From the NCBI GenBank assembly GCA_035403965.1, contig DAONGE010000001.1, positions 11,475-75,474 of the forward strand: a stretch of 64,000 nt of DNA, read 5' to 3'. Numbering within the stretch: the first letter of the stretch is position 1; every line of letters starts with the position of its first letter. Below are positions 5,260-39,263 of the stretch, one piece after another. Source of the stretch: Candidatus Omnitrophota bacterium. GTDB taxonomy: Bacteria > Omnitrophota > Gorgyraeia > Tantalellales > Tantalellaceae. The notes under the pieces are model-generated. The model searched no databases and was not told where the DNA came from. It saw nothing but the letters and a program-made list of their open reading frames with translations. Both the position numbers and the translations under genes were made by a program.

Positions 5260-5263
5260 TCAA

Positions 5264-5330
5264 AAGTATCATGTGTCATGTGTCAGGGCGGCCGAAAAGG
5301 AACCCTTTTGTATCATGACACATGATACTT
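5264..5330. promoter_or_regulatory. 17-bp perfect inverted repeat (AAGTATCATGTGTCATG .. CATGACACATGATACTT) between metY and cysK; terminator or operator candidate
   Basis: Arms at 5264-5280 and 5314-5330 are exact reverse complements around a 33-nt loop. Positioned between two sulfur-metabolism genes and downstream of an Rrf2 regulator. Confidence 0.4.
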
Positions 5331-5361
5331 GATACATAAAAAAGGTACAAAGGAGGCAGCC

Positions 5362-6503: not shown

Positions 6504-9500
6504 ATGAATATCCAAAATATTATGGACGTTGTTATATGGCAAAAAGATTACATCATGTTTGCCGAGGGATTCTTTTTTCTTTTGATTTCCGTAGTGACAT
6601 GTCTTCTGTATAACTATGAGAAAAGAGAAATAGGGTGGAATTGGTTCTCGGTGTATACGGGCATGCATGCGGTATTGCTTTTTGCCGGGGTTGTAATGAT
6701 CAGCGTTAATGAACCCCCTTGGTGTGCTTTTCTCAGACAGATGTTGAATCTCATTTCGTATTTTTTCCTTATAGAGTTTGCGAGGGTCTCGTACTGCAAA
6801 AAGAACAAGGTGAACAGTGTTCCGTGGATATACCTGGTGATATTTCCGATATTAATAATAGCGGAAAATTTCCGGATAATAGATCTTTGGACCGGAGGCA
6901 CACAGATACTGAAAATAGCGGGTGCCTTTTTTTCCGGATGGACGTTGTGGCGGTTTTCTCTTGGCAAAGACGAGAAGAAACGTCGTGTGCTTCAGCCCAT
7001 AGCGGTGATATTTGTAATATTGGCTTTAATCGAATGGGTAGTGGCGACAAAGCTATATTTTTTACCGCGTAATTCTACCGCAGACGCGCTGGATCCTTTG
7101 AATGTGGTTTTCAGCGTGCTCGCGATAGAGATATTGTTCTCTTCAGCCGCGATGGTCTTATTGTGGAAATATTATTACGTTATCCGAAAAGAAAAATTGC
7201 CGGGTTGCTGGAAAAATATAAACAGAGAAATAAGGGTGATGGTCGGTAGTATAGCCGTGATAATTATTGCCGGTTGGTATTTGGCCCAGCAAAAAGGCGA
7301 ATTGACAGATAACGAAGAAAAAGAACAATTATATTCACATGCCTTGCTGGCGGCCAAAGCGTTTCCAGCCGAAGATATTCTCCGATTGACCGGCACGCTC
7401 CGTGACATGCAGTGGGGAGGATATCATAAAATAAGGCATCAGCTTAAAAGGATTTGTACGGAACTTCCGCGTTGCAGGTTCGCGTATATATTCGGGGAAA
7501 AAGAGAACGATATCATATTTTTGGCGGATTCGGAAAGTCTTACATCATCGGATTTTTCACAGCCCGGACAGGTTTATCTGGAGGCAAGTCAGGCGCTTAA
7601 GGATATCTTTAAGACGGGGAGTGGTATCATAGAGGGCCCGATGGCAGATAGATGGGGCGTGTTCGTAAGCGCCTTGATACCAATACACTACGAGGGAAAA
7701 GTTATAGCGGTTTTCGGTGTGGACGTTGACGCGACCCGATGGCACAAAATAGTTTTTCAGGAGCGCGGGATGAGGATGTTCATAACGGCACTTGCACTCA
7801 TTCTCCTTCTTTCTTTTTTCGTATACCGACAAATGGAGGAAGAAAGTAAAGAACTTCTTAGTATTTCAAAGGATATTCTTGCCAAAAGCGAGGAAAGATT
7901 CCGGTCGCTTGTTTCAAATCTTCCAGGAGCCGTCTATAGGTGTGCTAATGATGGCAAGTGGACAATGTCGTTCTTAAGTAAAACTATCGAAGACCTGACG
8001 GGATATCCTGTTTCGGATTTTATAGGTAATTCTGTCAGAAGTTATGCCGATCTTATTTATCCTGAAGATGAGGAAATGGTAAATAAACTGGTTAGGGAAG
8101 ATGACCGTAATTTCGCACTGGAGTACCGCATCATTCACCGGGACGGGACTATTAGGTGGATATATGAAAGAGGTATCGGCATAAAGGGGACAAGCGGGAC
8201 AATAGAATATCTTGACGGTGTAATGCTGGATATCACAGGTCAGAAAATGGCGGCGGAAGCTTTGGCTCAATCCGAGGCGTTGAAGGCCTCGATACTGGAT
8301 TCCATAGGGCATGCGGTAATAATAGTGGAGAACCGGATAATAAAGTATGCAAATAACGGTTTTAAAAATGTTTTTGGGTGGGAACCGGACGAAGTGATAG
8401 GTAAAAGCGCACAGATATTATATGCTTCCGATGAGATCTATGAAAGCGTCGAGGATAAAATATATAGACCTTTGGCGACAAAAAATAAACATGTGGAGGA
8501 AATGCAGTGCGTGAGAAAAGACGGATGCGGGATAATATGCAGGATCAGCACTTCTAAAATAGGCAACGATTTCACCAATAGAAAAGTGGTCGGGATAATA
8601 GAAGATGTTACGGATATTAAGAACGCGCAGGAAGCGCTTAACAAAGCCCTCCAGGATTATACGACCCTTGTGACCAATGTTCCCGGTATTGTGTATAAGA
8701 TTAAGATGGATATGTATGGAAAATTTAAATTTCTTTACGCCAGCGACGCATTTTCCAAGTTTGGAATAGCCGCGAAAGACCTCGTAGAAGATGCGGATAA
8801 GGCATTTGGAAAAATATATCCGGATGATCTGGTCCGCGTGATAGAAACAAGCAAGATATCCGCGTCGGAAATGTCGTTATGGGAATTAGAATTCCGGATT
8901 GTAGCGGACAAAGGAGAAATAAAATGGCTGTACGGAAAGGCTGTCCCGAATAAAGATGCGAATGGAGAAGTTGTCTGGGACGGTATTCTTATGGATGTGA
9001 CTGAAAGGAAAAAGGTCGAAGAACGGCTGGAAGAAGCCCAGATACTTTTGAAGGCGGCGATAACACAGTCTTCGTTCGGGATAGTCGTTGTGGATGCGAA
9101 GAAGAAAGTCAGTTTTTCAAATGTGGCGGCCGAACAGATAAGAATGGATGTCGGGCTATCTTTTGAGGACGAGACAAGGACAAAAGAATGGAGCGCGTAT
9201 CATCCTGACGGAGAGACGAAATATTTGAAAGAAGAATTGCCTCTGGTGCTTGCGGTAGACAAAGGGATAATTTCCGAAGATATAGAAATCGTGATTAAGC
9301 ATAAAACCAAAGAAGAGCGGTGGTTGTCTGTCAGCGCGGCGCCAATACGAAATAACGAGGGTGTAATTATCGCCGGTATAGCCCTATTTAACGATATCAC
9401 AGACAGAAAGAAAGCTGAAAGGAAACTCAGGAACACGTTGGAAGAGTGGCGGGCGACGTTCAACGCCGTAAGCGATCTTATGTTTGTTCTGGACAAGGAT

Positions 9501-11837
9501 TTTACGATCAATAAAGCCAACAATGCCTGCGAAAAATTCCTTGGTATGAAAATCGGCGAAATTATCGGGCAAAAGTGTCATTTTCTGATGCATAAATTAA
9601 GCAAGGCGTTTGACGGATGTCCGTATGAAAAAATGATGCTGAGCTCAAAACGTGAATCGACCGAACTTTTTATTCCGGAAAAGAACATGTGGGCGCAGAT
9701 CCTAGTTGATCCGATATTCGACGAGAAAGGCAAAGTGGCCGGCGGGGTGCATGTCCTCAGGGATATTACGGCAAGGCGAAAAGCGGAAGAAGGAATGAGG
9801 GAGTCTATACAGCGTTTACGTGATATCATCAACTTTTTACCTGATGCCACGTTTGTTATCGATCTTGAGGGAAAAGTCATCGCGTGGAACAGGGCAATGG
9901 AAAAAATGGTCGGTGTAAAAGAAAAAGAAGTTCTCGGTAAAGGGAATTATGAGTATTCGTTGCCGTTTTATAACGAACGGCGTCCGATACTTATAGATCT
10001 TGTTTTTGAGAATATTGACGTAGTCAAGAAAAAATATTCTTTTGTAAAAAACGACGGATCGGCTTTATACGGAGAGAGTTTCAGTCCGGCTATGGACGGC
10101 GGTGTCGGCGCTTACGTATGGGGGAAAGCCCAGCCGTTATATGATTCCAGCGGAAAAATAGTGGGTGCGATCGAAAGTGTACGTGACGTTACGCATATCA
10201 AAAAAGCCGAAGAGGAGCTTATCCGTGCCAAGAACGCCGCGGAGTTAGCTAACAAAGCCAAAGGTGAATTTTTAGCGAATATGAGCCATGAAGTTCGTAC
10301 ACCGCTGCATGGAATCATTGGTTTTTCAGAGATCATACTTAGCGCCACATCCATGGAAACGGCCAAGGCATCCGCGCACACGATACTTGAGCAATCCCAA
10401 CATCTTTTAGGTCTTGTGAACGCTCTGCTGGATAATGTCAGACTGGCGGCCGGTAGATTAGTTCTGGACCAGAAACCGTTCTCTCTTGTTAAAATGCTGG
10501 ATCTTATAAAGAATATGGCGGAAGTTTCTACCTATAAAAAAGGACTCGCGTTAGAAGTGAAAATAGATCAGAACGTGCCGAATAATATTATCGGCGACGA
10601 GTTAAGGATAAGGCAGGTTATATATAATATCGTCGGGAACGCCATAAAATTCACCGATAAGGGAAGGATAACAATACATGTAACAGGAAAGAAGCTTAAT
10701 GATAAAAAATCATATGTAACTTTTATGATAAAAGATACTGGCATAGGTATCCCGAAGGAAAAACGATCCGTTGTTTTCGAAAAATTCGGGCAGATAGATA
10801 CAAGTAACGCCAGAAAATACGGCGGTGCCGGACTTGGTGTAAGTATTTCCCGGCAGATAGTGGATCTCATGGGAGGGGAGATATATTTTGAGGACAATAC
10901 CGACGGACCGGGGACGACTTTCTATATAAACATACCGTTTATTTCCGGGATAGGGAACGAAGATCTGATGGCCCATGCCCAGCCGAGAAAGCAGAGCAAA
11001 CCCTTTACAGGGAAAAGAAATATTCTTTTGGTCGAGGACTACCCTATAAATCAGATAATCGCCAAGGAACATTTGACCCAGGCCGGATACGACGTCTTGA
11101 TAGCGCAGGACGGGGCAAGCGCGCTTGAAATATGCAGAAAGCAGAAGATCGACCTGATTCTCATGGATATACAGCTTCCGGATAAGGACGGCTTCGAGGT
11201 TACCAGAGAAATAAGAAAAAGCGAAATGTCCTGTTCAAATGTTCCTATATTGGCGATGACCGCCAGCGCGGACGCTGAGTCGCATGAACAGTGTATGCGG
11301 GCCGGGATGAATGATGTTATAACAAAACCGATATTTCGGGATAAATTCATAGGGGTCGTGGATCAATGGATGGAAATTACCAGGCCTGAGGAGGAAGCTA
11401 AACCTGTTGGGACGGATTCTGCTGGCATTGCCCCAGAAAAAGTACAGGAAGATAAGAATAAAACTGACAGCGTTCCTCTGACGTCCGGCGCGGGCGATCC
11501 GATGGATTATCAGAAAGCTCTTGTGGAATTTGCCGGGAACGGGCATCTTTTGAAGAGCGCTATGCACAGTTTTATAAGGAATGTTGAAGATGAGATGGCT
11601 GGACTTAAAGAATCGATAGACAAAAAAGATCTTGAAAAGATAGCCCGCATGATGCATAAAATGCGCGGGGGCGCGGCCAACCTGACGGCGATGAGAATGG
11701 CCGGAGTGGCTGAGAAAATGGAAGACTCCGCGAAAAACGGCAAGCTGGAGGAAGTGAATGGCTGTCTTCCAGCGTTTCAGCAAGAGGTCGATATGCTGAA
11801 GGGATTTATTACGCGTAAACTGGGAGAAATGATATAA
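6504..11837 (+). CDS. hybrid sensor histidine kinase (7TM N-terminal domain, sensor region, ~8 PAS/PAC repeats, HisKA, HATPase_c, receiver, C-terminal HPt)
   Basis: N-terminal multi-TM region. Repeated PAS-like units, each followed by a DITxRKKAEE junction. H-box MSHEVRTPLHGIIGF (~10281), N-box NAIKFT, G1 DTGIGIP, G2 GGAGLGVS. Receiver ILLVEDYPINQ..DLILMDIQLPDKDG. HPt MHKMRGGAANL. Confidence 0.85.
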   Translation: MNIQNIMDVVIWQKDYIMFAEGFFFLLISVVTCLLYNYEKREIGWNWFSVYTGMHAVLLFAGVVMISVNEPPWCAFLRQMLNLISYFFLIEFARVSYCKKNKVNSVPWIYLVIFPILIIAENFRIIDLWTGGTQILKIAGAFFSGWTLWRFSLGKDEKKRRVLQPIAVIFVILALIEWVVATKLYFLPRNSTADALDPLNVVFSVLAIEILFSSAAMVLLWKYYYVIRKEKLPGCWKNINREIRVMVGSIAVIIIAGWYLAQQKGELTDNEEKEQLYSHALLAAKAFPAEDILRLTGTLRDMQWGGYHKIRHQLKRICTELPRCRFAYIFGEKENDIIFLADSESLTSSDFSQPGQVYLEASQALKDIFKTGSGIIEGPMADRWGVFVSALIPIHYEGKVIAVFGVDVDATRWHKIVFQERGMRMFITALALILLLSFFVYRQMEEESKELLSISKDILAKSEERFRSLVSNLPGAVYRCANDGKWTMSFLSKTIEDLTGYPVSDFIGNSVRSYADLIYPEDEEMVNKLVREDDRNFALEYRIIHRDGTIRWIYERGIGIKGTSGTIEYLDGVMLDITGQKMAAEALAQSEALKASILDSIGHAVIIVENRIIKYANNGFKNVFGWEPDEVIGKSAQILYASDEIYESVEDKIYRPLATKNKHVEEMQCVRKDGCGIICRISTSKIGNDFTNRKVVGIIEDVTDIKNAQEALNKALQDYTTLVTNVPGIVYKIKMDMYGKFKFLYASDAFSKFGIAAKDLVEDADKAFGKIYPDDLVRVIETSKISASEMSLWELEFRIVADKGEIKWLYGKAVPNKDANGEVVWDGILMDVTERKKVEERLEEAQILLKAAITQSSFGIVVVDAKKKVSFSNVAAEQIRMDVGLSFEDETRTKEWSAYHPDGETKYLKEELPLVLAVDKGIISEDIEIVIKHKTKEERWLSVSAAPIRNNEGVIIAGIALFNDITDRKKAERKLRNTLEEWRATFNAVSDLMFVLDKDFTINKANNACEKFLGMKIGEIIGQKCHFLMHKLSKAFDGCPYEKMMLSSKRESTELFIPEKNMWAQILVDPIFDEKGKVAGGVHVLRDITARRKAEEGMRESIQRLRDIINFLPDATFVIDLEGKVIAWNRAMEKMVGVKEKEVLGKGNYEYSLPFYNERRPILIDLVFENIDVVKKKYSFVKNDGSALYGESFSPAMDGGVGAYVWGKAQPLYDSSGKIVGAIESVRDVTHIKKAEEELIRAKNAAELANKAKGEFLANMSHEVRTPLHGIIGFSEIILSATSMETAKASAHTILEQSQHLLGLVNALLDNVRLAAGRLVLDQKPFSLVKMLDLIKNMAEVSTYKKGLALEVKIDQNVPNNIIGDELRIRQVIYNIVGNAIKFTDKGRITIHVTGKKLNDKKSYVTFMIKDTGIGIPKEKRSVVFEKFGQIDTSNARKYGGAGLGVSISRQIVDLMGGEIYFEDNTDGPGTTFYINIPFISGIGNEDLMAHAQPRKQSKPFTGKRNILLVEDYPINQIIAKEHLTQAGYDVLIAQDGASALEICRKQKIDLILMDIQLPDKDGFEVTREIRKSEMSCSNVPILAMTASADAESHEQCMRAGMNDVITKPIFRDKFIGVVDQWMEITRPEEEAKPVGTDSAGIAPEKVQEDKNKTDSVPLTSGAGDPMDYQKALVEFAGNGHLLKSAMHSFIRNVEDEMAGLKESIDKKDLEKIARMMHKMRGGAANLTAMRMAGVAEKMEDSAKNGKLEEVNGCLPAFQQEVDMLKGFITRKLGEMI

Positions 11838-18997: not shown

Positions 18998-21900
18998 ATG
19001 CCTAATTATTTAAAAAAGATTATATCAATAGTAATAATCGTGACCTTTGTAGCGGATCCCAACATCGCATTGGCCGCTGATTCTGGCATATTCAACAAAC
19101 AGAATGATTCCAGCACGCTTTCCCCCACACTTAGAATGAAATCGATCGATGTGAACAAAGAAGAAAAAGCCTTGAATACAACCGGGATAGATGAAAAGGA
19201 TAATATATCTGAGGATTTCAGAGCGCAAAGCCGCTTTTTATATGTCGCCGGAGAGATCGGAAAAGCCATAGCGAAAAAAGAACAGTTAAAGTTGCCCATG
19301 GATGATATCCAACGGATCATCATCGAGAAGGTTCCAGACATAGATGCAACGGGATTCAATTACAAAAAAATAGGACTTAAAGAGGGAAGGTATAGTCTTG
19401 ATTATGTTGACAATGACAAGCCGTTGTTGACGCTAAATTATTATTTCGTAAAGGGCGATCTTGCCCAGGGTCAGATCAAAGTTGCCGATGTCAGCGAAAA
19501 AGGGTTGTTGGTCTTTGAATGCAATATGCCGGGCATGGATGGGATCGCGAGCATAAAAGAAAAAGAAACCAGCGAACCTAAAATACAAAACAGTGTACAT
19601 AAGCGTATTAGAATGTCCAAAGATGAAAAACGAGATGTAGGAGAAATAAACGCTCAAAATAATGGTATAGACAGAAAGGCGCTTCGATTTACTAACGTGT
19701 TGGAGAAACGGCTGAATAGGGTTTTCACCGCCGCGGCGGTCAGGCAAAAGACAGGAAGAAAGGTGGAGATCAAGATAACACCGGTTTTGAGGTACGGGAA
19801 CAACGAAGCGGCGGCTTGGACCCGCGGCTTCACAATGCGTGCAACACGTTCAGATATGACCATAATCCATGAGTATAGTATGGTTTTTGACAGGACAGAT
19901 CTTAAGGAATTTCTATTTACCGTGAGGCACGATATTTCCAGGATAGAGGGACTTAATGATATCGCGGATATTCCGGAGTGGGAAGATCTGATGTATGACC
20001 TTGCCCTTCAGCCCAGAACTATGGATGAAGCGACAGTAGTGAATACCGCGCAGATGGAAATAACGAAACGATATTATCGTTTCAATGATCCGGAAAATCT
20101 TTATGTCGAACATCCGGCGCCTGTTATCTTCTTTTCACCAGTAGTGAACTTACTAGATATATTCCCGATAACCGTGATGATGGATATAGATGGTAAGCCT
20201 TTTTATTTTCTGGAAAGAAATCTCGGGCTTGTTGGGCTTACAATGAATTCCGGGGTTCCTCACATGGTAAGGTTCACGCAGTTTGAATATGCCGGGCGTA
20301 TCCGCAACGGTATTGAGATCGTCAGATTCACGGATAACTATGAACCGACAGCCTTTATTCTTAGAGGGTACATCGATCTGGAAAAGGGTTTTCAGATAAT
20401 CCATTATACACGGGAAGAAAACGAGATGAACAAGATACGGCTTCCCGGTATGCGTAACGAGGTATTGGAAATCGAAGCTATGTGTAATCTTTGGCCGAGA
20501 TTATCGGAAGAAATTACTCGTGATAAAACAGAAACAATGACGTCGGAAGAGAATAAGAAAAATAAAAAACCGGAACTTGCTCCGCTATACCGTGATATGG
20601 GCGTTATTCTCGGAACTTTGGTCGGCGCGGGACTTCTTTACGGGCAATTCGGTATCACGGGTATCCCTGTGGCGGCGGCTATTTCGGTGCTGACCTTGCT
20701 GCCGGGCTGGCTTATACATGAAATAGGGCATCTGATCGGCAGGCCATTCGGGAAAGAGGCGGAGATCAGGGCCGGGCCGATAGCGAGTTTGTTGCTTTTC
20801 AGCGCCGCTATCATACCGGCCATAGTGCTGCATTCGTACGGTTTTCCAAGCGTTATAATAGATGTCGCCGCGGCGAATTATTTTGTGCATATATTTGCCG
20901 ACGGCCAGTCGCTGCTCAAGCGATCCGGATTTTTGCATCCGGAAGATGTGAATGATGCAAATATCCCGGAGCGTGAAGATCAGGATGAACTAACTCCCGG
21001 CCAGAAATTAATTAATAAAATCAAGGAAGTTTCCGCAAGAGGATTGGCCGATTATGGTGTCATAAAAACACCGTTGATACCGCTTGATAAAATAAGCGGG
21101 ATGATGAGTTTCAATAGAAAAGAAAGAAAAGTGTTCTTAAAAGACGAGGCCTGGCAAACCGGAGGCTCGTTTAAAGCCCGCGGGGTATCAGTCGAGGTTG
21201 ACGATGCGATCAGGTCAAGGATAGAAGCCATTATAGCGGAGGAACCGCATCTTCAGGAAATAAAAGCTTCTGGGAAAACACCATTAAAAGAGAGACCGTT
21301 CTATATAGTTACGCAAACCACCGGTAATCACGGTATCGCGCTTATAAACGCTGTTAACGTGGCGATAAAAATATATTCCGAGAAATATCCGGAGTATAAG
21401 GAAGCGATAACTAATTTCGAGCCGGTCATATTTACTATAAAAAATCTTCCGGAGATAAAGTTTAAATTGATGACCGAAGCGGTGGAGATATACAGAAAAA
21501 CCAGCGGAAAAACAGAAAGCGAAACAATCAGGAATTATTACGAAAATTACAACAAAGCGCTGACTGCCAGAGAGGAATTTTTACGAGAGCATTCTGAAGA
21601 CGCGGTGTATATGGAACACGGCGGTCTTGCCATAATGGCCGGACACGCGACGGCCGGGATAGAAATAGACGAGCAGCTTACCGAGGAATTCGGGATAGGG
21701 AAAGACAAAAACGTAGTTGTGATAGTGCCTGTCGGTGCCGGCGGTCCTATAGGGATAGGTGCGGGTGTAAAACTTAATGGACGGAATGTGACCTTTATCG
21801 CGGTCGGGACTAAGGAGTATGACGCGATCATTCGAAGCATAGATTCCAGCAAGGTGGAATGGAACAAAGCGAATCCTTCTCCCACGGCGTTTATAAAAGG

Positions 21901-24900
21901 TAAGCCTATCATATATCCTGACGGGATTGCGGTTGATAAATCCGAAAAAAGCGCCGTAGACGTTGCACGTGATTTTGTTGACGAGAAATTTGTGACAAGC
22001 GATAAGAAAGGACTTAACAGGGCCGCGCCGCTTTTATATTCAGACCTTGAAAGTTATTACATGGAACGCGCGAAACCTCTTGCTGTCGGAGGAACGACAG
22101 CCGCTACGCTTGAGGCCCTGATCGAAAATAAAGGTAATGAGATTATGAAAAACGCCGATGTCATAGTGCTTTTCGGCACAGAGGGTAACGTAGACCCTGA
22201 TATAACGGAATACATTTATGGCCTGAATTCCGGCAACGAACCGTTAAAATTCGGCGAAAACGGAGAGCTGACCACTCAGCTGATCGGCAAACTTAAGGGA
22301 TATGACATAGCGGCCAGAGAGAACATACATGGACAGCGGTATAGTCAGGCTGAAGTTTTTATTGAAAAACAGCGATGGGTGCTTAAGAATGCGGCTGCGT
22401 GGGATAAAGAGGCTGTTGATCAGGCCCGGTATGTAATAGGGAATTATCTGAGTTTAGTGAATAGCTATTGTCGGGCCATGAAGAATGAAAACGATCAGAA
22501 AATAAAAACAGACATGATCGAGAGTTGCGAAAAGTTACTGAAAAACACAACCAGCCTGTATGAAAAATTTAAGCGAGAAGGGAAGATCCTCGGGTGTGGT
22601 GCGTACATTATCAGCGCGTACACGAACCTTGCGGGACAATATGGGAATGAGGATTTTTATAAGATCGAAAGACTATTGGATACGGCTAAGGAAATATTGG
22701 ATCAGGGTGCCGCAGACCGATATGGGGATATTACCACAGAAGGGGCGAGAGAGGTCATTCCGCCTATAACAAAACAAGCGGAGTTCATTATAACCGGGTA
22801 TATGAAATTGGCCGGTAAGATGAAGTGGCAGGATGACTTTGCCAATGCTTTGAGAATAGCTGAAAAAGCCAGGGATCTGTTGGCCAAATATAGAGACGCG
22901 CCCGGTGTGGAAAATGTGTTTTACGATGTTGGTATTTTTTATGTTAATTTGGCAGCTATATACAGGGATCGTTTTCGGGATATTGTTTTTTCAATGGCGA
23001 TGCTGATGAAGGCAGAGTCTATCCGCATAGAGTTTGGAGAATATAACAGCGCCCAAAAAGGGCATAGTACAGGGAATAGGGCATTATCAAGTTCGATTAT
23101 AAATGGTTATACGTTAACTGCCAGGAAGTTTTCAGAGAAGAAACAATATGCGGCCGCGGTACATGCCATAAGGAGATCCGGGGTCCTTACCTGGCGTTAC
23201 GGGACCGATGAATATAAAGAAAATCGTGATATCGTTGGTTTGATGGTTCTTGCCAATGCAGTATCTAATATTTTGCGAAGAGATGTTCTTGAGAACAAAC
23301 AGGAGTATCTAAATAACTTGAACGACGCTAAGCGTATTTTATGGATATCCGCGCAAGTGCTAAGGAAATACGACACGCCAAGCGTAAAAGCGCAGGTGGA
23401 ATATTTGGTAAGCGCGTATACGAATCTGTCCTATTCATATAAAACGGTTGGAGAATATGGTTTATGTGGAGATGTTTTGGAGAGGGTCGAGCGTATATTG
23501 CGGTCGTATCCGGATCAGCAAAGCGTGAGAGATCAAGCCGAGTTTGTTGTGAGTAGTTTCGCGAACCTGGCAGGGGCATACAGAGAGGCCGGGGATCTTG
23601 AAACGGCCGAAAAATTTCTAAATAGAGCATATAAAGTATTTTTAAATTTTATCGGAGAGTACAGCGTACAGAGGCAAAAAAAGTTCATGATAGACGATCA
23701 TATGCGTCTCAGCCAGGCTTTTGAAGTGAAAGGCGATCGACAGAAAGCAGTGGAATTGTCCGACAAAGCGTTAAAAATAGCGCAAACGAAGTTAGATGTG
23801 GAGAAACATAAGCGTCTGCGCGCGATGGGACCGATACCTTTCGAGATGTTCATCGTTTTTCTGGCATACGGGAGCATTTACAAACATCGTAAGGAGATTA
23901 TTGATTTTATCCATTCAAAAGGTTATTTGCGCCTGGAAAAAGCCGTACGTTTGTTAATACCGGACTTATCCAAATACCGCGTGACTGAATGGTTGCATGA
24001 AAGTCTTCAGAATATATCCATAGGATTAACGATCAAACCGGTCGCGATAGATCAGGGCATGTGGGATCTTGAGCAAAGAATACCTGAAAGAGGCCAAAGC
24101 GAAGAAGCGAAATTCATAGAGATGTTTGGAGGGCATTCCGAGGAAGTTCTTGAATTTATAACCGAGGAACGAAATTGTTCCGAGATATCCGGGTTTTCTA
24201 TAAAGAACGTAAAACATTTTGAAACGGCCGAAAATGTTTCGCGGAATGTATACCGGATCGAGCTGGTATTGAAAGGCGGTCACAACCATGTGTTCTATGT
24301 TAGGGAATACAGATCGACTGACGGGGAATCCCAGATAGGCGAGCTTGATTGGATAACAGGGCCTATACGACGCATGACCGATAGGGTTGAAAAAGCCGCG
24401 GCGGCAGGAATGGTGGCGCCGTATGCTCGACTGTTTATCGATCGTGGAAGATGCCTATTCGTACAGGACGAGGCCCAGGGGATACCGGTAAAAGAATTTA
24501 TAAAAGACGAGGAAACCGCGCTATTGGCCGCCGAATCGATAGGTTATGCGCTTGGGCGTTTACATGGCTTAGGAATAGAACACGGTGATCTGGAAATAGA
24601 GAGAAAAGGAAGCCCGGAACATAATCATATTTTCATTCATGAAGAGAACGATGGGGTCACGGCGAATTTTATAGATTTTTATGAAAGGCCTTTTTCTTTT
24701 TGGAGAAGAGGCAAGGTTAAAATATTTGGCGAAGAAGATGACCTGCTCAATAAGCTTGAAAAATATGTGTTCGGAAAGATAGGCAGTGAAAATCGGGCGG
24801 AAAATGAAATCGCGGATGTATTTACCAAGGCCTACATAAAGGGCAATGTTTCCGTGGGGGAAAAATACAGGCCAAGTCTTGTCGCCAAGATAAAAATGGC

Positions 24901-27900
24901 TTTAGGGAAATTTAAAGAAAAAGTCGCAGATCGTATGCTAGTGCATAAAATCATGGCGAATTCGGTAGAAGCTATACATGATGAAGAGAGGCTAATTGAA
25001 GCCTCTGGCGGTGAAGCGCGTATTGTGAGGAGCGCAAATCATGGCACGCAGGGTACAGTGCAGACTGGCGAGGCAGATGGAGAAAATATTGTCGCGGCGG
25101 ATAACGAGAAAAATGAGGGAACCGTAACAGCAGTAAATGGGGCCGTTGTTTTGGGATTTTCACAGGCGAATTGTTGGACCCCGCTTGCGTTGTATGCCGG
25201 CCTTTTGATCTACAGTGAATTGTATAAGCACCGGAAAGCTATCATAGACTTCATCCATTCAAAAGGCTATTTGCGCCTGGAAAAAGGCGTACGTATCCTG
25301 CTGCCGGATCTTTCCAAATACCGCGTTACAAGGATGTTCCACAAAAGTTTGATGAATATGTCAATAGGGGGAACGATCAAAGAGACTGATGAATCCAACA
25401 AATACGATCTAGAAATAAGAGCCAGGCTTAGTGAAGTTGATGCATATATCGGCAGTAATGAGCTGGACAGCGCGGAGAAAGCTTTGAAACGGGCACAATC
25501 TATATTGTTCAAATATGTAGGATTATATCCCGATGACGCAAATATCAGATACATCGTCCTGCAATTTATTTCCGCATATGGAAGCCTTGCGGAAAATGCC
25601 ATTAGTGTCGGAGATTCAAGGGAATCATTGGAAATGGCGTTTCGTGCGTATAATGCCCAGTACAGGATATTGTCTTTAAAAGCTGTTCAGGAGGAAGATC
25701 GTAACAAACTGGTTGTACATGCGATGGTGGGTATCGCAAAACTTTGCGGATCATTTTTGGATTTAAGCTCAGGAGCACAGATAGCGCGAGCATGCGCAAT
25801 GGCAGAGAGGGCACAGGAAATATTTACGGAAAACAGGAATATTCAGAAGGTAAAAAAGAGAGCGGCGACTTGCGTAAAGGCCTTTTGTAAAGTGTCCGAA
25901 GCATACAGTAAATCCGAAAAATACGACGATGCATTGTCAATGGTCGACAAAGCCGCGAGGGCGTTAAAGAATAATGAGAAGGAAAAAGGTGTGAGGGGTT
26001 TGATGCGGGAAGTTGTGCGTTTGTATATGTCCGGTCTTGATGAAATGTGCGGGAATGAGGATAAATTAAAAAAACTCATGAATGAATTTAGGGATAGGTT
26101 GAAGTCAGATCCGTCGGATCCGGTAACAGAAATGATATTTGCGTATATGATGCTGATCTCCGGCAATACAAGTAACGCTGTGGCTTATGCTATGGACGGG
26201 ATAACCAATAGTGACAATGTATTATTGGATATCGGCAATCAAATCGTTCGCACAGGGAATATGATAGAGATGATCGGAAAAGTCCAGGATGCGGCGGAAC
26301 TGATCGATCTGAGGATAAGAATAGAAGAAGAGCTTTCTCCGGGGAATTTGAAGGATAGATGTATTAGCGAATGGGATAAGAGAAATGCGCAGCTTGGCGG
26401 ATCAGAATATGTTGCTTTAAATAAACAGGAGCATGTATTGACTGTACCCGGGGATGGGGCAAAAACAGTGTTAAATAGTGTTTCGGTTCAAGAAGGCGAA
26501 AAACGAAATGATTTGCCGAGGCGCGCGTTAATAGAATTGTATAGGCAGATTGATGAGTGCATGAAAGGATTTTATGATGCAGTTTCTCATAATGAAACTG
26601 ATAAGGCTGAAGGCCTGCTTGGCAAAGCTAAAGAGGCACTTGATGAGATCATTGAGGAATACCCGGATGCTCATTATCTGAAAACAAAGTTTCAAACAAT
26701 TTGTATTGGATATATTAAACTTGGCGGAGTTATGGCAGGACAAGACAAATCGATGCAAGACCTATCAAAAGCTTTCCGTGCTTTTAATGCTGAGCATGAA
26801 ATGCTGGTGGATGCGAAATACGCTGCATACAGAGAATTGAAAGACATAGACAATGTATTGATTCGGTTGATGGGGCGATGGAGAAAACTTGGCAGATCAT
26901 TTTTACAATATTCTTCAAAAGAAAGCACGAGTATTGATACAAGCGCAAAAGCGATAGAAAAATCCATAGAAATATTTGACATGTATAAGGCGGGTGGAGG
27001 GTTGCCGATAAGTGCACAGGATTATGTAAACGATCTGTGTGATATTTCTGACGCATATATCTACTCAAAATCTGACAATAAGGCCGAAGAGGCGATGAAA
27101 GCGACAGCCGCAGCCGAAAAACTGGCAATGGACAACAGGTCTGGATACGATTCGATGGAGATGTTATGTAAAGTTATTCGGCAATATCAAAAGTGTATTA
27201 TCATTTCGTGCGATAATATGAAAAATGTAAAGAGGTTGATAAGTGAATTCGGCGGGCGAACAGAAAAGAATAAAATGGATGCGGTAGCGTCAGGCGCGTT
27301 GTCACTGTTATATCTGATATCCGGGGAATCCGCGCAAATGATCGCATGCCTTGACTTGGCTCAGTACAGCATTAATGACCGGATGAAAATACTTGATGAA
27401 GCCGCGAAATTTTTGGACGAGTATTCTAAGCGAAATCCGGATGATAAGACCGCTAATTTTGTGCGCCTCCAAATTTGGGAGCGTTGCAGGGTGCCGGACG
27501 GTTCCACTTTACAGGAAGAAACCGAAGAAGAACATCTAAAAATGTTTCTTAGCCATTTGAACGAACGATATAAACTATTTACGGGATATTGCGAAGTATT
27601 TTTTGATACGAAGAAAGCCGAGTCCCTTGCATGGAAATATATGATCTCTTATACAAGGCTATGCAAATTGTTGCTGGATAAAAATACTGAAGACGGGATC
27701 AAACATGCCGAGGAAGCTGGCACGCTGGCGTTTGAAATATTTGCCAGATACGAGGATAGTATAGAAATCAGCAACCAAAAGAAATATCAAATAGCCAATT
27801 GTCGCAGGCTGTTCAACATATATTTGAAAGGTAATAAACCGGAAGACGCGTTTGTGATGATCGACAGGGAAAGAAGATTGTTCGGACTAGATATGGCTGA

Positions 27901-30900
27901 ACCAGATGTGAGCAGGGAAATAATGACGCAGTATGTCGAAGTAGTTGATAGTGTGAAAGACGATCCCGAAAAGATCAATGACGTTATGGAACGGTTAAAA
28001 GAGATAAGGAAAAACGATGTTTTCGCATCAGCCGTTCTTGCGTATATATGCCTGTGTTTTGGGAAAAATACAGAGCTTAATAGGGAGAACTATATAGATG
28101 ATTTGAGGAAAAGAGGGAACGAATATCTAGCAGAGTTGGCAAGACAAATGACAATTATGCGCGTTCTGATCAAAAAAATTAAGGAAGCGAGTGATATAGG
28201 TGAGATAAATAAGATTGAGAAAGAACGAAAGGAAGAAATATATATTCTGTTTTTACTAAGGATAGGTGAAGAGTGGGAGAAGTTGCAGCGAGAAAAAATG
28301 CGCCGGGGAGAACGACGAAGGGCTGACCAGGACGCTGAATCCGTGGAAAGTCAACAAAAGGTGTCAAAGACGCAAGTAGAAGCGTCCCAAGTGGTGGTGC
28401 CTAGTCAGGAAGAATTACCTGTGACGGTTGTTGCGACTGAAACTCCGAAAAAGAGGGATGAGGTGGGTTTGCCTGTGAAAAGTGCAAACACCCCGAGCAA
28501 ATCCGGACGGAAAACGAAAAAAGAAATAGCTTTTGAAAAAAATAAAGGGAGCAAAGATAAGCGGATCGATGAATTGATGGAAGTGATCGATGCTAAAAAC
28601 CCGGACGAAGTTATACGGTTGGGAAGGATTTTGGAAGAAAAAAGGAAAAAGTCTGTAAGAAAAGGAGATGCAAAGGGCACGGAAAGATTAGAACAGGCTA
28701 TTGTAAAAGGAGAAGGCTTTTTGAAAAGAATTGGATTAGATGGCAGTGCGATCCGCGCACATGCTGTTATGCCTTTTGGGTTTGCTCAGGCAGATTCATG
28801 GGCGCCTCTCTGTCTTTATGCCGGACTTTTAATTTACACCGCGCTGTATAAACACCGCGAAGCTATCATAGATTTCATTCATTCAAAAGGCTATTTGCGT
28901 TTGGAAAAAGGCGTACGTATCATCCTGCCCGACTTTTCCAAATACCGCATTACAAGGGCGTTACATGAAAGTTTACTTAACGCATCGATAGGATTAACGA
29001 TCAAACGGATCAAAAATAAAACCGCAGGTATTTCGTCATCCGAATTGTCTGTTGAAGAAGCAGCCGGGTTGTTGACCGCATGGATAAACACGCCCCCTGA
29101 AGAAAGGATAAAATCAGTGTTTCAGCCTGTATGGAGTCAGGACAACTCTTTGTTGGGAAAATACAACACCAACGGACAAAAGGTAACAGTTACTCCGGCG
29201 GTGTTGTATTTTGATCCTATGCTTGCGATAGCTAAAAGCATAATTACATATAAAGAAAAAGAACCTCAAGAGGCTGAAAGATATGTAATTCAGGCTATGT
29301 CCGGAAAAGCGTTTGAAGAGTTGTGTCAGAAAGATGTTCGAGATGCATTGATAAGCTGCGGATATGATGCCTTTTTTAAGAATGGAACGATAGAACTGGT
29401 GGAAAAAGAGGGAAGAGAAGAACTGTTATATCCAAACGGAACTAATGTGGCGATTTTTCCGGGATCATTGCTTGGATTTGTAACGGCGTTATACTGGGCA
29501 AAAGAAGGCAGGTTTGGGGAAGTAAACATGCTGATTGTTCCTCCGGTAAACGGTCTTTGTTTTGGGGAAAATAATCCCGATAAACTCTATGCGAAACGAG
29601 CAATTTTTATCAATCGGGAAAATCATATTGTAAAGGTAGAGTTTAAAGATCTGCTTCCGATTCACGGTCTTGCCTATGCCGGGATTTATAGTAACCCGGC
29701 GACAATGAATGAGATAATGTCAAAAGATTTTCCGGTTATTAATTTGCCGATTATTATAGAAATGGCACAGGATAAAGAGTTATTCAATACTTTCTTAAAA
29801 AATAACGGTATCTCTGTCCCGGAACAGTTGGCGATCGATATTGATGATACGAGAAACATCAAAAGCCGGATGACGGATTTCATTAAAAACTTAAAAAGAA
29901 AAGATGGAATTGTAGTTAAGCCATTTGCCGCTTCGGGAGGGCAGGATGTGTTGATGTTCCGGAATGATGAAATAGACAAAGCGGCCGGTCATTGTAAAAA
30001 ACTGCTAAAAAAGGGGAACAAAGTTGTTGTGGAGGGGCGTATTGTTAATGAAATATGGATTGATAGCAGCCAGGGCCATATCGATTGGAATTTACGTGTG
30101 CTTGCAACATGGGACAACGGTAATATAGTTATAAGCCCGGATTTGATAGAAGTCAGATACCAGAAATTTAGCGACGGACCGGTTAATAAGTCAAAAGGCG
30201 CCGAAGTAATTACATTGAATAAATTTTTTGATATACAAGGTTATTCAAAAAAACAAAGGGAACAATTTCTTCAGGGGGTAAAAGAATTTATTACCGGTGC
30301 TTCAATGGCGATTGAACGTGTCGCGGAGAATAAAAAAGGAAAAAGAGAATATATTAGTAAAGTATCCGGCCTTATTGGGTGGGATATTATGTTGGGGCGG
30401 GACGGAAAATGGAAAGTGATCGAAGCCAATGCCGGCTCAGTTGGAGGGATATCTACTATAGAAAAGCTCCTTCCGATTGAACAAAAAGGCGGCGCGGTTA
30501 TTCCAGTAGCGCGTTATATGGCACAAAATGCTATAGCATACCGTGAAAGATTGTCGAAAATACCACAGGATAAAGAGGGGGAATCGTTCAATGTGATTGC
30601 GGATCCATTTATGATGAATAACCTTGCATGGACGGCAGTAGAAGAATCCTATCTGCAAATTGCAGGAGAGATTGCATGCTATTTGCTTGGCATGAATGAG
30701 CGCCGAAAAGATAATAGTGCAATAAATTTCGATATTTTAGCTAAAGTTTCCCTGATGAGGAAAGATTATAATCAGGCAAAATATTTTGCAGAACAAGCAA
30801 TCAAAATTGACCCTAATGACATCGATATGCAGAGGCAATATGTGTATTGTTTGGCAATGTTGAATGAAAGTGATGAGGTCATTAAGATATGCAAGAGACT

Positions 30901-33900
30901 TGTAAGAAAATATTTGTCAGATTGGTATATATGGACGATTATGGGAGATTCATATCGGCTTAATATGGATGATAAAAAGGCGATAAAAGCTTATGAAAAG
31001 GCGGTGAAAATATACTGTGATAAGGGTCAGACATATTCGAAAATAGGGGATGCATATTCTAGGTTGAAAAATTATGAAAAAAGTGCGGATGCTTTTAGGA
31101 GAGCTTTAGAAGTAAACCCAAATAATAGATATGTATGGGCAAGATTGAGTGATGAATATGAAACTCTTGGATGCAAGGATTTATCAGATTACATTACGGC
31201 CGAAGTGTTTGATAAGCTGGATGAAGGCGAATCGCCAAAAATAGAGTGGTCAAATATACTTGAGCACTTAAAATCTGGGGAAAGGATTGTTGCAACAAAA
31301 CATAGGGAAATGGCGGGCACACATGCTGTTTTTGCATTCGGGCTTGGTCAGGCGAATTGCTGGACCCCTCTTGCGTTGTATGCCGGACTTTTAATTTACA
31401 CCGCGTTGTATAAACACCGCGAAGCTATCATAGATTTCATTCATTCAAAAGGCTATTTGCGTCTGGAAAAAGTCGCACGTATCCTGCTGCCGGATCTTTC
31501 CAGCCTCAAATTCAAAAAATATTTGAGCGAAAAGATCTCTGATCTAACCGCGGACATGATTAATACCATAACCGGTTCTGTCAAAAACAAAGTTGACGGG
31601 AAAAAGATGCAGATCCCGTCCGACAGATTGCCGCGCAAGGCAAGCACGTTTGAACATAACGCGCAGTATGGGGCTAGGGGCAAAGGTCCCGGAGGCATTG
31701 ATCATGGAACAACGGCCGGCGGGAAAAAAATAGACAGCGGAGTGATCACGGAGCAGCGTGCAAAAGAATTTGTCGACAAAAGCGAGTTAACGTTGAAGGG
31801 CGATGACGGCGAAGAATATTTATTCCTGCTACAAAGTCGCGAAGATATGGCCGAAGGCGCATATACAATATCGGTTATAAATAATAAAAGAGAAAGGGTT
31901 GCCAAGCTGGACGTAGGGAAGAATGTTGTAGAAGAGGGTTTTGAGGGAATGTATGATAACGCGATTGTTGTAAGAGAGGATCTTAAAAGGAGGAATATTG
32001 GGGCCATATTGTTCAAATTAGCGATGTATATCGCTAAGGCAGATGGCTTCGAGAAGTTTTTTGTGAACTGGGTGGATAGCGCCAATGAACCTGAGAATGC
32101 GTTTTATACGGCAATAGGTTTTAAGGAAACATATGAGGGTTCCGGAGATTATTATTTTGACCTAAAAGATCTTGTATCCGGAAATAAGACGGTAGAAAAA
32201 ATATCATTCCCACTTTATGACATACAAGTGACCAGAGATCCTGTAACCGGCAGAATGATCCGAGAAGAAGTTTATGATTATATGCCGCTAGCCGCTACTT
32301 CGGAAAAAAGATATTTATATTCAGTCAGAGTGTATGGTCCGGATAGACTTCTTTCCGAAGCCAGATATTACGACAACTCCGGAAAGCTGATAAAGGTCGC
32401 CGCGAATGATTACGAGTTTTTCTCAGACATGTACAGCCGTTGGATGGATATGAATCCGTTTACGGCCAAGGATGTGTTGATTTCCTATGTAGAGCATGCT
32501 AAAGGGAGGGCTCTCAATAATGACGAAATAAAACAGATCGACCGGTTTGTTGTAGCGGTTTTTGATAGGGATCTTATGGGATTTATAAATTCGTACAGTA
32601 AATCTGAAGAAGGGTATCCATATTTTTGTCATAAAGCGGCAGATGATATCTATGATACGTTGCGATCAAAGGGTATAGCTGTGCGGACCGTATGGTATGG
32701 TATTCACAAGGTAGCCGAAGCCGATGTGGCCGGGATAAGATTTGTGCTGGATGGAGCTGCGGCGCAGTTCGAAAAAATGCGAGATAACGCTATCAGTATT
32801 GTAGCCGACGCATTTAGAGGTACTGGAATAGTGATCATTCCGTCGGATCTGGCGCGTGAAATACCGTTTTGTAACCTGATATACAAGAACGATCTTGGGG
32901 GTGGAGAAGTAGGCAAGATTTACGATCCATTAACCGGACGGGAATTCCTATTAAATGCGATGTTTAATTTTCTTCTAGTGAAACAGGAAGGATCGGAAAT
33001 AACGGTTGATCTCGAAACAGGCGGGCCGGTTGTAGGAGAGATAGACTCTAGGCCGGAAGAGCGTCTTCGCGTGCTTAGGGATTATTATACTCTCTCAGAC
33101 AAGCCGGATGAATTTGATAAGTTGTTAGAACGTAGATCTGTAGCCGATCGTGAGATGCTTGAACGGGCGAAAACAGTCGCCGCGTATAACGCGGAGCGCG
33201 GTGAAAAAAGAATGGATCAGCCCGAGCAAGAGCCGGGAAGGATATTTAAGGAGATTTTCGGCGGATCGGCGGAGGAAGTGCTTTATTTTGCCACACAACG
33301 AAGCGACAGGTCGGGGATACTGTCTTTTGTAAGGACGATTCTTAAACATCAGCCGCTGAGGCAATTTGTTGAAATGAACGAATATAGGAACGAAATAGTT
33401 ATGACAAACGGTGTGAAATATGTGTTTGACACAAAGGAATATTCGTTTGATCATGGCAAGGGAGCGAACATAACGGACATCGTTGACGCTGTCGCGGTGT
33501 CGGTCGATAAGACGAGAATGGCTTTCGGTCTTGGGTTTGCCCCTCAAACGGATATGGTGATATTAGGCGGGAAGCTTGTTGTACTACAGGAACCTGTTAA
33601 AGGGGTTATGTTCAGCGGATATGCACAAAGTCCGGCGGATCTTATAAGATCCGTTGAGGCTATAGGATGCGCTCTTGGACAGATGCATAGAAATGGAATA
33701 CTGCACGGGAATATTGAAATATCCGGGGGAAATAAGGAGGAGAGGGAAAGCGTATATATTGACGAGACTTCAGGGGTTCCGAAGGCCTATTTTATTGATT
33801 TCGGGGGCGAGTTGGTAGTGGGCGCGAAAAAAGAATTTCTGGGAGAAAAGAAAAAACTCATCAGCGATATTTTAAAGTACGCCTCTGACCATTTTCCCCG

Positions 33901-36900
33901 GGAAGGAATGTACGAAGATAGGATCCGGGATATTTTTGATAACGCCTATGATAAAGCGGCTTATTCAGCCGGATACAGGGCAGTGTCGGTATCTGATATC
34001 CGTCTTCCGCGGAAGGCGATGGTATCTGAGGATATGATGATGGCGATATGGTGGGCGGTCTTTTTTATCTCTCCGGTGCTGTCATGGATATTTTTTGAAT
34101 GGCATGACAGAAAAATAGATAAAGGGGAAAAGAAGTTCGAACAGGAAAGATTGGAGCGGTTGAGGCAAAGAAATAAGACTTTGGATCAGACCAAAGGGAA
34201 AGATAAAGAGGAAATTAATGGGGACGCTGATAAGTCTGATAAAGGGCCGTCAAGGCGAGATATATTGAAAATGGGTATTATGTTACCGTTCCTTATGATG
34301 GCTGAACGCGCCGGGGCCGGAGTCACTGAAAAAGATCTCGTTGAAAAGTTCCTGACTGATACTTTATCGAAGTGTGCGGTATCGCTTTTGAGAAAACCCG
34401 GTGATGATCGGGTGTTGCGTGCCGTTGTAAAGAAGATCAGATCTGGCGCGGAAAAGGGGAACGCGGAAATATTGAACGGCATAGCCGATATATTGGAAAC
34501 ATATAACGCGCTTTTGAACGCTGAAAGTCCCGAAGAAGACGAAAAACTAAATGAAAAAGTGAAAGCGCTGACCGTGGAGGTTAACGGTAGATTGTCCGAG
34601 ATAGGTTTATTCACGTTTATTGGGCTTGTCAGAGAGCCGGTTCCGGACGGACAAGGAAGGACAGGTATATATGTTAAATCTTTCAGACTGGAAGAAGCGT
34701 CCGAGTATTTGAAAGAGAAGATAGGAAATGAAAAGTTTTATCTTTTGAAGGGTATAGACACGACCCCGCTTATGGACACAAAAGGTTTTCACGACGAAAA
34801 ACTAGGGTATTCTGCTGTATTTCTTGACTTGGTGGAAAAAGAAGCGGACGCGGTATATGAAGAACTAGGCGGCGAGGATAGAAAAAATAGATCTTCGCTT
34901 GAGAGGGCGTTGGACAAAATACTTAAATGTGAGTTCGCTGGAGTGACGAGGAATGAAATAAAAGAAAAGATATTGAACGCGACGGTTTTGCATGAGTTGG
35001 CGCATATCCCTGATAGAGGGAAACTGGATGAGAACGGAAGCGTTCAGGAGATATACGGTTTACTCGCCGGTGTAACACAGGGAGACGCGCAATATTACGG
35101 GATATATACCCTGGCCAGAATGATAACCCCGGGAGATTTGCCTTTTATCCCGCATGATCTCGCGGCCAGGACTATTTTCGATGGGATGTTGAAGATCCTT
35201 CATTCTGAAGGTAGGGCCGGGGATGTGTCTTTTTCGACTGTGGACGCGGAAGGATTAGACGGGCTTATAAATTATTTATCGGGAATGTCGCGAAAGGACA
35301 TCCTTGATATCGTACAGAAAGTTGAAAACTCCAAAGATAAGGTATTGAGCGGGTCCCGCGTTGTTGCCGGAGCGGCAACAGGCGTAGGAATAACAATAAA
35401 AGACCGGTCAAATGATCCGCTAAAGAATAAAGGCGGGTTGCAGAAAACAGATCCGGGTCTGGAGTTTGATGTTACTTCTTACCAGGTCACGGGTGCGCAG
35501 TATAAAGACAGTATAGTTGTTCTTAGAAATGCCCCGCGGGATAAAAAACAGGTCGTTCCGTTAAAAGTTATACAGCCGTCCAAACTTGATCAGGCCGACA
35601 GACAGAAACTCGCCGGCAATATCCGGAAATGGCTGGAGTATAGAAAAGACATAACTTGGCCGGATGCGGTAGAGAATATCGCGGATCAACTCGAAAGATA
35701 TATAGGCCCTAACATATATTTTGCCGTAACGGATGACATGGAAGTGGAAGGATATATTAAAATCACAACCGTTGGGATGCAACAAATAGAGATAGCTCCG
35801 TGGAACCAGAAAAAACATGGCGATGAGAGAAGATTTTTGGGTGTGGGGAATCAATTGCTGGCGTTTATGGCCGTGAAGTTTTTCAAAGAGCAGGGGCTTG
35901 TGAGGATGTTAGCTCCGAACATGAACACAAAACGAGCTGTCGGAGAAGGGAATATCACTACGATAGATAACCCGCTGGATACCGTGCTTGAACGCGAAGG
36001 GCTTATAAATTTCCTTGATGGGCAGAAAGAGATATTAGAGCGGGTTATCCGGGATTATGCAGCCTCATTCCGGGTTAAAAATGACAATAGACCCCAAAAA
36101 GAGGGATCTTCCGTAAATACCGTGCGAAGTCGTAAAACGGCCGGTTCCGCCGCGCGGTATATATGCGTTCCTACCGTTAAGGAAGGTGAAGAATACCGTT
36201 CATTGACGCCTTTATATGAGATACGATCTGTGTCCGGCGAAAAAACGGAAAAAGAGGGACGGATGGTAAGAAAAGCTGTTCTTATCAGGAAAAGTCCCTA
36301 CCCTGTTTATCAGGAAGAGGTTGAAGGTTTTGTATTCAGAGACAGAGTTTATGCGGAAGAAAAAGTTACAAAATTTCATCGCGATATGCGTTATATGCTT
36401 AACAAAACCCCGGCCAAAATATCGGTTAAAAAAGTCATGGGAATAAGCGAATTGTTCGCGTTGTCAGGACTTCCTATCAGTAAAAATATAGTAAACGGTA
36501 TGATAACAGCCGGATATTTTGTGGATAGGGTCGGTTTTATGAAGGCTTGTAACGAAGAAGGGCTTTCGGCGCAACGTATAGTGAGAGAGGGTATATGCGA
36601 AGAGATGGAAAGAGGGCAGGATCTTGTCTATTCGGAAGTTCTTGCCGGTTTGGTAGATAATGTTCCGTCGGAATCTTCTTTTCTGGTTATGGACAGCGAG
36701 AGCCTGAACAAACCGTTTTCACGTTCGCAATATGGAGTTAGATACAATCTATTTACAAATATTATCATGCGGAATAAACCGGAAACGATAGCGTTCCGGA
36801 ACAAATATTTTGAGATAATGCGGGAACGTGACTATTCAGTTGCGCGGGGGATGGGGTTAGATCTCGCACCGGAAATTTTTACGAAGTATTTGCCTGATCT

Positions 36901-39059: not shown

Positions 39060-39147
39060 ATGCCGGATCATATCCACGATATTATTTCGATCGTAGGGCG
39101 GGGTTTCCCCGCCCAGAATACGTCGGGCGCGGAGACCGCGCCCCTAT
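39060..39147 (+). repeat. ~90-bp duplicated fragment of the Y1 transposase gene (HuH-motif codons + REP-like double hairpin)
   Basis: 39060-39147 is ~95% identical to 39502-39590 (ATGCCGGATCATATCCACGRTATTATTTCGATCGTAGGG..CGTCGGGCGCGGAGACCGCGCCCCTA). No RBS precedes it. Confidence 0.6.
39093..39147. repeat. REP-like element copy 1 (two hairpins: GGGCGGGG-TTT-CCCCGCCC and GGGCGCG-GAGAC-CGCGCCC)
   Basis: Perfect 8-bp and 7-bp GC stems read directly from the sequence. Confidence 0.65.
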
Positions 39148-39263
39148 GTTTAAATTGTTTGTGTATTTTTTTGATGCCACCGTCCGCGGGAACGCAAAAT
39201 AAAATTATAAAAATTGAACGAATTTGTCCCCAAAATGTGTCTATAAATATAAGGGGAATTAAT

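Follow-up and report, generated by a model that had tools for sequence, protein, structure and literature searches.

A conserved four-helix HExGH membrane module with S2P-like motifs inside giant multi-enzyme proteins of Omnitrophota

The stretch of DNA analysed here (64,000 nucleotides (nt) of contig DAONGE010000001.1 from a Candidatus Omnitrophota bacterium, assembly GCA_035403965.1; hereafter referred to as the window) contains two giant genes, g1 and g2, the first of which encodes an embedded, membrane-spanning module of approximately 130 amino acids (aa) carrying an HExGH motif. As judged from sequence comparisons, the module represents a family that is new at the sequence level and has to date been encountered in very long multi-enzyme proteins of the Omnitrophota only. 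Its conserved motifs correspond in order and in helix placement to those of the S2P intramembrane metalloproteases (MEROPS M50). It is most likely, with a probability of about 45%, a minimal S2P-like metal-binding module that serves as a membrane staple and would act as a zinc hydrolase at the cytoplasmic face.

The distribution of the module was examined by an exhaustive phmmer search with a 128-aa segment of g1 against 1.84 billion cluster representatives (E<=1e-3). The search identified 19 clusters, 10 of them with E<=1e-10, and all but two of the proteins are 890-7316 aa long. A local search with a hidden Markov model (HMM) allowed 23 module copies to be extracted from the collected proteins (designated P0002, P0003 etc.), two each being present in P0002, P0003 and P0004, and the overall identity among the copies is 27-48%. 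Source names are available for seven of the ten proteins that were looked up, and each of these seven comes from a Candidatus Omnitrophota metagenome-assembled genome (MAG). A scan of one genome per species yielded a single relative, L007, encoded by one uninterrupted frame of 1666 aa on a 5-kb Omnitrophota contig. Similarity between g1 and L007 is confined to g1 aa 510-650 (40% identity, with HEIGH and AAANYFVHIFAD identical) and the flanks are unrelated; since the module is the sole similarity between the two proteins, it is a portable cassette. Two scans of metagenome contigs added nothing new, the first giving no match and the second re-finding only the contig of P0004. A word-index protein search, performed with the segment and with a 22-sequence alignment, gave no match, though exhaustive phmmer had found the 19 clusters; in another search of the same index all 120 matches listed were shorter than 180 aa, and therefore it may not return long proteins. 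The module family is rare. Two short members, P0007 and P0014, are both found on contigs of less than 1.3 kb; they were considered as free-standing genes and rejected as such, P0007 being a fragment and the P0014 contig (L009, see below) appearing error-prone.

Eight residues, H574, E575, G577, H578, G593, P594, S597 and H631 (g1 numbering), are invariant in all 23 copies. D635 is present in 22, the exception being a His in P0008 (HIFSHE), which is likewise a metal ligand, and N627 in 19. L527, G539, S563, G570 and, excluding L007, W571 are conserved at 90% or more, while in the juxtamembrane motif P-x-L-A-P-x-Y the conservation is 20/23 for P525, 22/23 for L527 and 20/23 for Y531. Insertions and deletions among the copies are limited to the loops between helices 1 and 2 and between helices 3 and 4. 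The signature of the family thus reads P-x-L-A-P-x-Y, helix 1 (G-x3-G), helix 2 ending in G-W-x-x-H-E-x-G-H, a basic loop of 13-15 residues, (A/G)-G-P-x-(A/F)-S at the start of helix 3, and helix 4 ending in N-(Y/F)-x-x-H-x-F-A-D (Table 1).

An earlier note on this DNA had reported HEIGH and N-x7-DG amid three hydrophobic helices of g1, with about 55 residues between the motifs. The two motifs are real (nt 20717-20731 and 20876-20905), but four helices are found, the first of which scores under a simple hydropathy cut-off. HEIGH does lie within a helix, at the C-terminal end of hydrophobic helix 2, and the actual distances are 49 residues from H578 to N627 and 61 from H574 to D635. The invariant (A/G)-G-P-x-x-S at aa 592-597 and the invariant H631 had been overlooked. 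AlphaFold2 with the 22-sequence alignment produced a confident all-helical model (mean pLDDT 91.1, pTM 0.81), in which the first ten residues, comprising P-x-L-A-P-x-Y, are also predicted with fairly high confidence (mean pLDDT 81). DSSP prints residues 10-65 of the model as one helix and assigns no strand.

The number of Lys and Arg residues per segment is 1.8 in the N-terminal flank, 0.04 in loop 1-2, 2.9 in loop 2-3, 0.2 in loop 3-4 and 2.6 in the C-terminal flank. Because of this pattern both flanks and loop 2-3 are assigned to the cytoplasm under the positive-inside rule. The conserved polar residues would then lie at the cytoplasmic ends of helices 2, 3 and 4 and at matching depths, with H574, H631 and S597 about 4-5 residues, and H578, D635 and G593 about 0-1 residues, from the helix ends. 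Adjacent domains are of cytoplasmic type and fit such a placement: the distance from the end of the module to the next domain is 13 residues for adenylate kinase in P0008, 15 for PEPCK in P0010 and 33 for PALP in g1, and aminotransferase V, 2-hydroxyacid dehydrogenase, SAM methyltransferases, radical SAM/B12 and sigma-70 regions are found next to other copies. A Sec-type leader with an AxA site (…NIALA/ADSG) was observed at g1 aa 1-27 (nt 18998-19078), and a very similar leader ('…F.xQD.xWA/YP…'), followed by a common head region, in eight other module-bearing Omnitrophota proteins. Should this leader cause export of the N-terminal head, the N-terminus of the module could be cytoplasmic only with an extra membrane crossing before it, and such a segment is present in g1 (aa 373-395), P0011 and P0017.

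The contig L009 (812 nt, encoding P0014) carries a unit consisting of the module and PEPCK_N, with stops in all three frames upstream. A GAGGGGG box is located about 70 nt upstream of PQLAPKY, the local form of the juxtamembrane motif, and what resembles an intergenic stretch extends to about 20 codons before it. The called start (TTG at 109) removes the conserved PQLAPKY, and the 3' end contains a probable frameshift, because of which the evidence from this contig is weak. It suggests that P-x-L-A-P-x-Y can lie immediately downstream of a natural gene boundary, an arrangement that fits a unit made of the module and its downstream enzyme and equally fits a plain N-terminal anchor.

The nearest known system is S2P (MEROPS M50, PF02163), represented by the structures of MjS2P (3B4R), RseP (7W6X/7W6Z) and SpoIVFB (8VJL). 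Its signature motifs are HExxH on core helix 1, AGpxxN/S/G on helix 2 and NxxPxxxxDG on helix 3 (10.1101/101204). The module matches motif 1 in full, with HExGH at the end of the first core transmembrane helix, and also motif 2, as A592-G593-P594-I-A-S597 opens helix 3 with the G, P and S invariant; of motif 3 it has the N and the D only, at the N+8 spacing. As in S2P, the HExGH helix runs towards the cytoplasm, AGPxxS begins the next helix, an Asn and an Asp eight residues apart lie on the third core helix and the site is at the cytoplasmic face; a putative three-helix catalytic core is joined by one extra helix. The three motifs would all be on the same, cytoplasmic, face of the membrane. 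Global HHalign aligns HExGH, AGP and the Asp with their counterparts in MjS2P, leaving a single gap of about 24-26 residues at the S2P β-hairpin, and when HExGH is held fixed the real score is reached by 4 of 150 shuffles of the remaining columns (z 2.8). N627 pairs with the motif Asn when two reference sequences are used and shifts off it, to an upstream Asn, with an M50 alignment of 116 core sequences (114 M50 proteins, MjS2P and SpoIVFB). The module is read here as one that would work like the S2P core and may descend from it, its membership of M50 being tentative.

Several observations weigh against the S2P-like reading. The position N+3 is occupied by V, I, A or another residue and never by Pro, and there is no conserved Gly after the Asp, G636 being matched by Gly in a minority of copies; of the spacing that the earlier note had equated with the S2P motif, the N-to-D distance agrees, the Pro is missing and the Gly is found in few copies. 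The module is without the LxPxGG membrane-reentrant β-hairpin which binds substrate in S2P, its short loop 2-3 taking the place of the ~40-aa stretch that contains this hairpin. Both P0002 copies read HEYLGH, a one-residue insertion that corresponds to the HEXXGH form, which binds zinc in DPP III (M49). The Pfam M50 models (PF02163 / PF13398) and the NCBIfam S2P models gave no match at E<=10 to g1 or to any of the 23 copies, the best weak Pfam matches being M48 (0.17, two members) and DUF3267 (0.6, one member), and a profile search of PDB sequences gave matches at the level of HExGH only (fragilysin 0.07, MjS2P 3b4r 4.7). Foldseek of the AlphaFold2 model against the PDB returned nothing below E 1 (3b4r_A E 4.1, TM 0.30). 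Local HHalign against the 116-sequence alignment covers just 21 columns around HExGH (probability 57%, P 1e-4), and the score of the part from AGP to the Asp alone is reached by 28 of 200 column-shuffled controls and is not significant. The extra membrane crossing is absent in P0005 and P0012, so that the topology parity relative to the leader fails there, and in L009 the module seems to be gene-initial, where a purely cis-acting cutter of the upstream chain would be pointless. Of the S2P-like segment claimed in the earlier note there remains a discrete, conserved membrane domain with the motif order and helix placement described above, whereas M50 profile similarity, the lack of which the note had listed as counting against its idea, is absent from the Pfam, NCBIfam and PDB sequence searches. 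The module further differs from S2P in the separation between HExxH and AGP (19 versus about 40 residues), in the additional invariant H631, in the lack of PDZ or CBS domains and in being an internal cassette of multi-thousand-residue proteins, S2P being a free-standing enzyme.

If the S2P-like reading is correct, helices 2-4 would hold the residues of an S2P-type zinc site, namely H574-E575-x-G-H578, (A)G593-P594-x-x-S597 and N627-x3-H631-x3-D635, in which zinc would be bound via H574, H578 and D635 and/or H631, with E575 as the general base. In zincins the Glu beside the first His is needed for catalysis and is not needed for a purely structural site. The invariant E575 and the replacement of D635 by His point to metal chemistry rather than packing. 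The module would staple the polypeptide into the inner membrane such that the enzyme domains on both sides stay cytoplasmic, and may hydrolyse a peptide segment that reaches its cytoplasmic mouth, either from its own chain or from another membrane-tethered protein. P-x-L-A-P-x-Y, directly upstream and on the same side, is a candidate cis substrate or plug, by way of speculation. Protease activity and self-processing are put forward as hypotheses, as are metal binding and common ancestry with M50.

The more specific proposal that a miniature S2P-derived intramembrane zinc protease cassette cuts the giant chain at the cytoplasmic face, for instance near P-x-L-A-P-x-Y, is considered unlikely. If true, one giant translation product would give rise to a set of membrane-tethered enzymes, and an embedded intramembrane metalloprotease would for the first time be seen to process a cellular polyprotein. 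Whether the Omnitrophota giants persist as single chains or are cut is treated in the literature as an open question, for which C39 and S8 peptidases alone have been proposed as cutters (10.1101/2023.11.21.568195), and the module offers a mutable target (H574, E575, H578, H631 and D635) and a candidate cleavage neighbourhood. An active module of about 125 residues would be far smaller than any characterised S2P and, being without the substrate-holding β-hairpin, would bear on the minimal requirements for intramembrane metalloproteolysis. An inactive one would still constitute a new membrane domain restricted to this lineage, which marks the borders between cassettes and could be used as a handle for metagenome searches.

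The cleavage of separator helices, suggested in the earlier note, finds no support. The separator repeat is about 100 aa long and combines a single hydrophobic helix with a conserved amphipathic part behind it; g1 has four copies ('...IIDFIHSKGYLRLEK...IGLTIKP') and g2 seven full copies ('...IVDFLYEKSRMKKWY...GPGLTIK/R P'). None of the 18 other module-bearing proteins contains it (0/18), and therefore the module is not specifically coupled to the separators. The repeats were also considered as co-evolving substrates and rejected, being confined to g1 and g2.

Among the alternatives, a non-catalytic anchor or assembly domain, in which the four-helix bundle tethers and perhaps oligomerises the cytoplasmic cassettes while its conserved His, Glu and Asp residues keep the small bundle together as a structural metal site or polar network, is possible but on the unlikely side. 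It is favoured by the position of the module directly before soluble enzymes (adenylate kinase, PEPCK and PALP starting 13-33 residues later), its apparent placement as the N-terminal element of the module-PEPCK gene in L009, the missing S2P β-hairpin, the GxxxG-type packing motifs in helix 1 and the absence of significant similarity to any peptidase family. However, an anchor has no need of eight invariant residues including the HE pair, ordinary hydrophobic helices serve as anchors elsewhere in the same proteins, and the invariant Glu after the first His together with the exchange of D for His indicates metal chemistry. A chance occurrence of HExxH and N-x7-DG in ordinary hydrophobic spacer helices of no specific function, for which the frequency of short motifs in long proteins and the poor conservation of the 'DG' and of the exact S2P motif might be adduced, has a negligible probability and is refuted by the family conservation: the H, E, G, H, G, P, S and H residues are invariant in 23 homologous copies at 27-48% identity, a confident common fold is predicted, and the composition of g1 leads to an expectation of about 0.1 HExxH per protein, as against two observed.

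The module might also be a metal-handling or non-peptidase hydrolytic unit, such as a small ZIP-like oligomeric divalent-cation channel or sensor that supplies or senses metal for the attached enzymes, or a lipid-directed hydrolase; this is rated as quite improbable. The metal centre of ZIP proteins is formed by HNFxDG and HExPHExGD, with HNxxD(G) on helix 4 and HExPHExGD on helix 5 of eight helices, and the transmembrane HExxH and H-x-F-x-D(G) helices of the module recall it. Weak matches to Zip (PF02535; 0.17), CbtB (0.031) and MntP (0.071) point in the same direction, but each comes from a single member and is non-significant. In ZIP the two motifs follow one another in the opposite order, four helices would not suffice for a known transporter fold, and AGPxxS is accounted for by the comparison with S2P and not by that with ZIP.

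Other known systems were compared with the module as well. Peptidase domains of the C39 and S8 families are also embedded in Omnitrophota giant proteins (10.1101/2023.11.21.568195). These domains have soluble cysteine or serine peptidase folds that Pfam detects, whereas the module is membrane-embedded, of the HExxH type and unmatched by any library. CPBP / Rce1 proteases (PF02517) resemble it as small helical membrane domains, and H631...D635 resembles their HxxxN/D. CPBP / Rce1 carry the motifs EExxxR, FxxxH and, on the last catalytic helix, H-x-x-x-(N/D), and no HExxH; motifs 1 and 2 (EExxxR, FxxxH) are absent from the module and no copy has a Pfam CPBP match. M48 HtpX/Ste24 and DUF3267 (a putative zincin peptidase) likewise carry HExxH beside or within hydrophobic helices, but the matches to them are far below the cut-offs, cover the HExxH stretch only and include no counterpart of AGPxxS or of the N/H/D helix. 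Neither of the two reports on Omnitrophota giant proteins (10.1101/2023.11.21.568195 and 10.64898/2026.06.07.730766) mentions M50 or an HExxH membrane module, and searching the literature for texts that combine S2P with polyprotein or giant protein brought up no relevant work.

The second HExxH of g1 (HELAH), which the earlier note had placed correctly and considered together with the first, is surrounded by non-hydrophobic sequence (hydropathy 0.03 over the 18 residues before it) and is not akin to the membrane module. For the surrounding region (nt ~34640-35320, g1 aa ~5215-5440) Pfam gives only a sub-threshold DUF7844 (E 0.016), and its sole relative among the collected giants is P0017 aa ~1110-1400, a marginal similarity of 25% identity over about 230 collinear residues including LHELxH. 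The AlphaFold2 model is unusable (pLDDT 45); the strands it predicts, with a following helix that has HELAH at its end, would suit a zincin fold, which proves nothing. The region is a soluble orphan unrelated to the membrane module. No HExxH occurs anywhere in g2. Further HExxH motifs that lie in or next to hydrophobic helices but share no sequence relationship with the module were observed in P0004 (aa ~1686), P0017 (aa ~2425 and ~3477) and P0016 (aa ~876). Those of P0004 and P0017 belong to no Pfam family, and that of P0016 has a Pfam M50 match over 19 residues only, below the cut-off, so that they provide no precedent for a canonical M50 domain within related giants. Several membrane HExxH families may thus far have escaped recognition in the long proteins of Omnitrophota.

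Table 1. Coordinates of the module, its elements and related features in the window
Feature	Position (nt)	Strand	Details
Four-helix HExGH membrane module	20564-20956	+	g1 aa 523-653, ~130 aa; from HMM envelope and 23-copy alignment
Juxtamembrane motif P-x-L-A-P-x-Y	20570-20590	+	P525, L527, Y531; directly before helix 1
Helix 1	20591-20641	+	aa 532-548; glycine-rich, G535 and G539 conserved
Helix 2	20666-20734	+	aa 557-579; conserved face S563, G570, W571, H574, H578
HEIGH	20717-20731	+	aa 574-578 (H574, E575, G577, H578); candidate zinc ligands and general base
Loop 2-3	20735-20773	+	basic, 13-15 aa; Lys plus Arg mean 2.87
A-G-P-I-A-S	20771-20788	+	aa 592-597; start of helix 3
Helix 3	20774-20833	+	aa 593-612
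Helix 4	20855-20905	+	aa 620-636; N627, H631 and D635 on one face (i, i+4, i+8), then G636
N627	20876-20878	+	within AAANYFVHIFADG, which also holds G636
H631	20888-20890	+	within the same segment
D635	20900-20902	+	within the same segment
Giant gene g1 (module host)	18998-38977	+	single open frame, 6659 aa
Second HExxH (HELAH)	34991-35005	+	g1 aa 5332-5336; non-hydrophobic region
Giant gene g2	40045-62208		7387 aa
Separator repeats in g1	23798-24079, 25124-25417, 28751-29026, 31310-31624		
Separator repeats in g2	45841-46146, 46456-46737, 48241-48552, 49087-49398, 53650-53949, 56635-56943, 58132-58410		

The window consists of ordinary chromosomal genes (MgtE, MetY, CarB, photolyase) beside g1 and g2, and no paralogous copy of the module was found in it besides that of g1. 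The gene g1 is also annotated as a single 6659-aa gene in the MAG GCA_964457255.1 (contig CAYWFL010000001.1). Its domains form an enzyme-type mosaic of PALP (aa 686-1058), TPRs, ATP-grasp, GNAT and tRNA_edit, with a weak Cas1-like stretch at aa 2281-2394, and those of g2 comprise three HATPase_c, GNAT, two MutS_V, GT2, S6PP, nucleotidyltransferase and HPr. Both are mosaics of cytoplasm-type domains and resemble the "multi-enzyme metabolic cluster" class of Omnitrophota long proteins (10.64898/2026.06.07.730766). An open reading frame of 242 aa between g1 and g2 (39060-39788, + strand) matches the REP-associated tyrosine transposase / IS200 family (E 7e-19, under the curated cut-off), and a multi-PAS histidine kinase of 1777 aa (6504-11837, + strand) is encoded upstream of carB, followed in the source contig by a response regulator of 132 aa.

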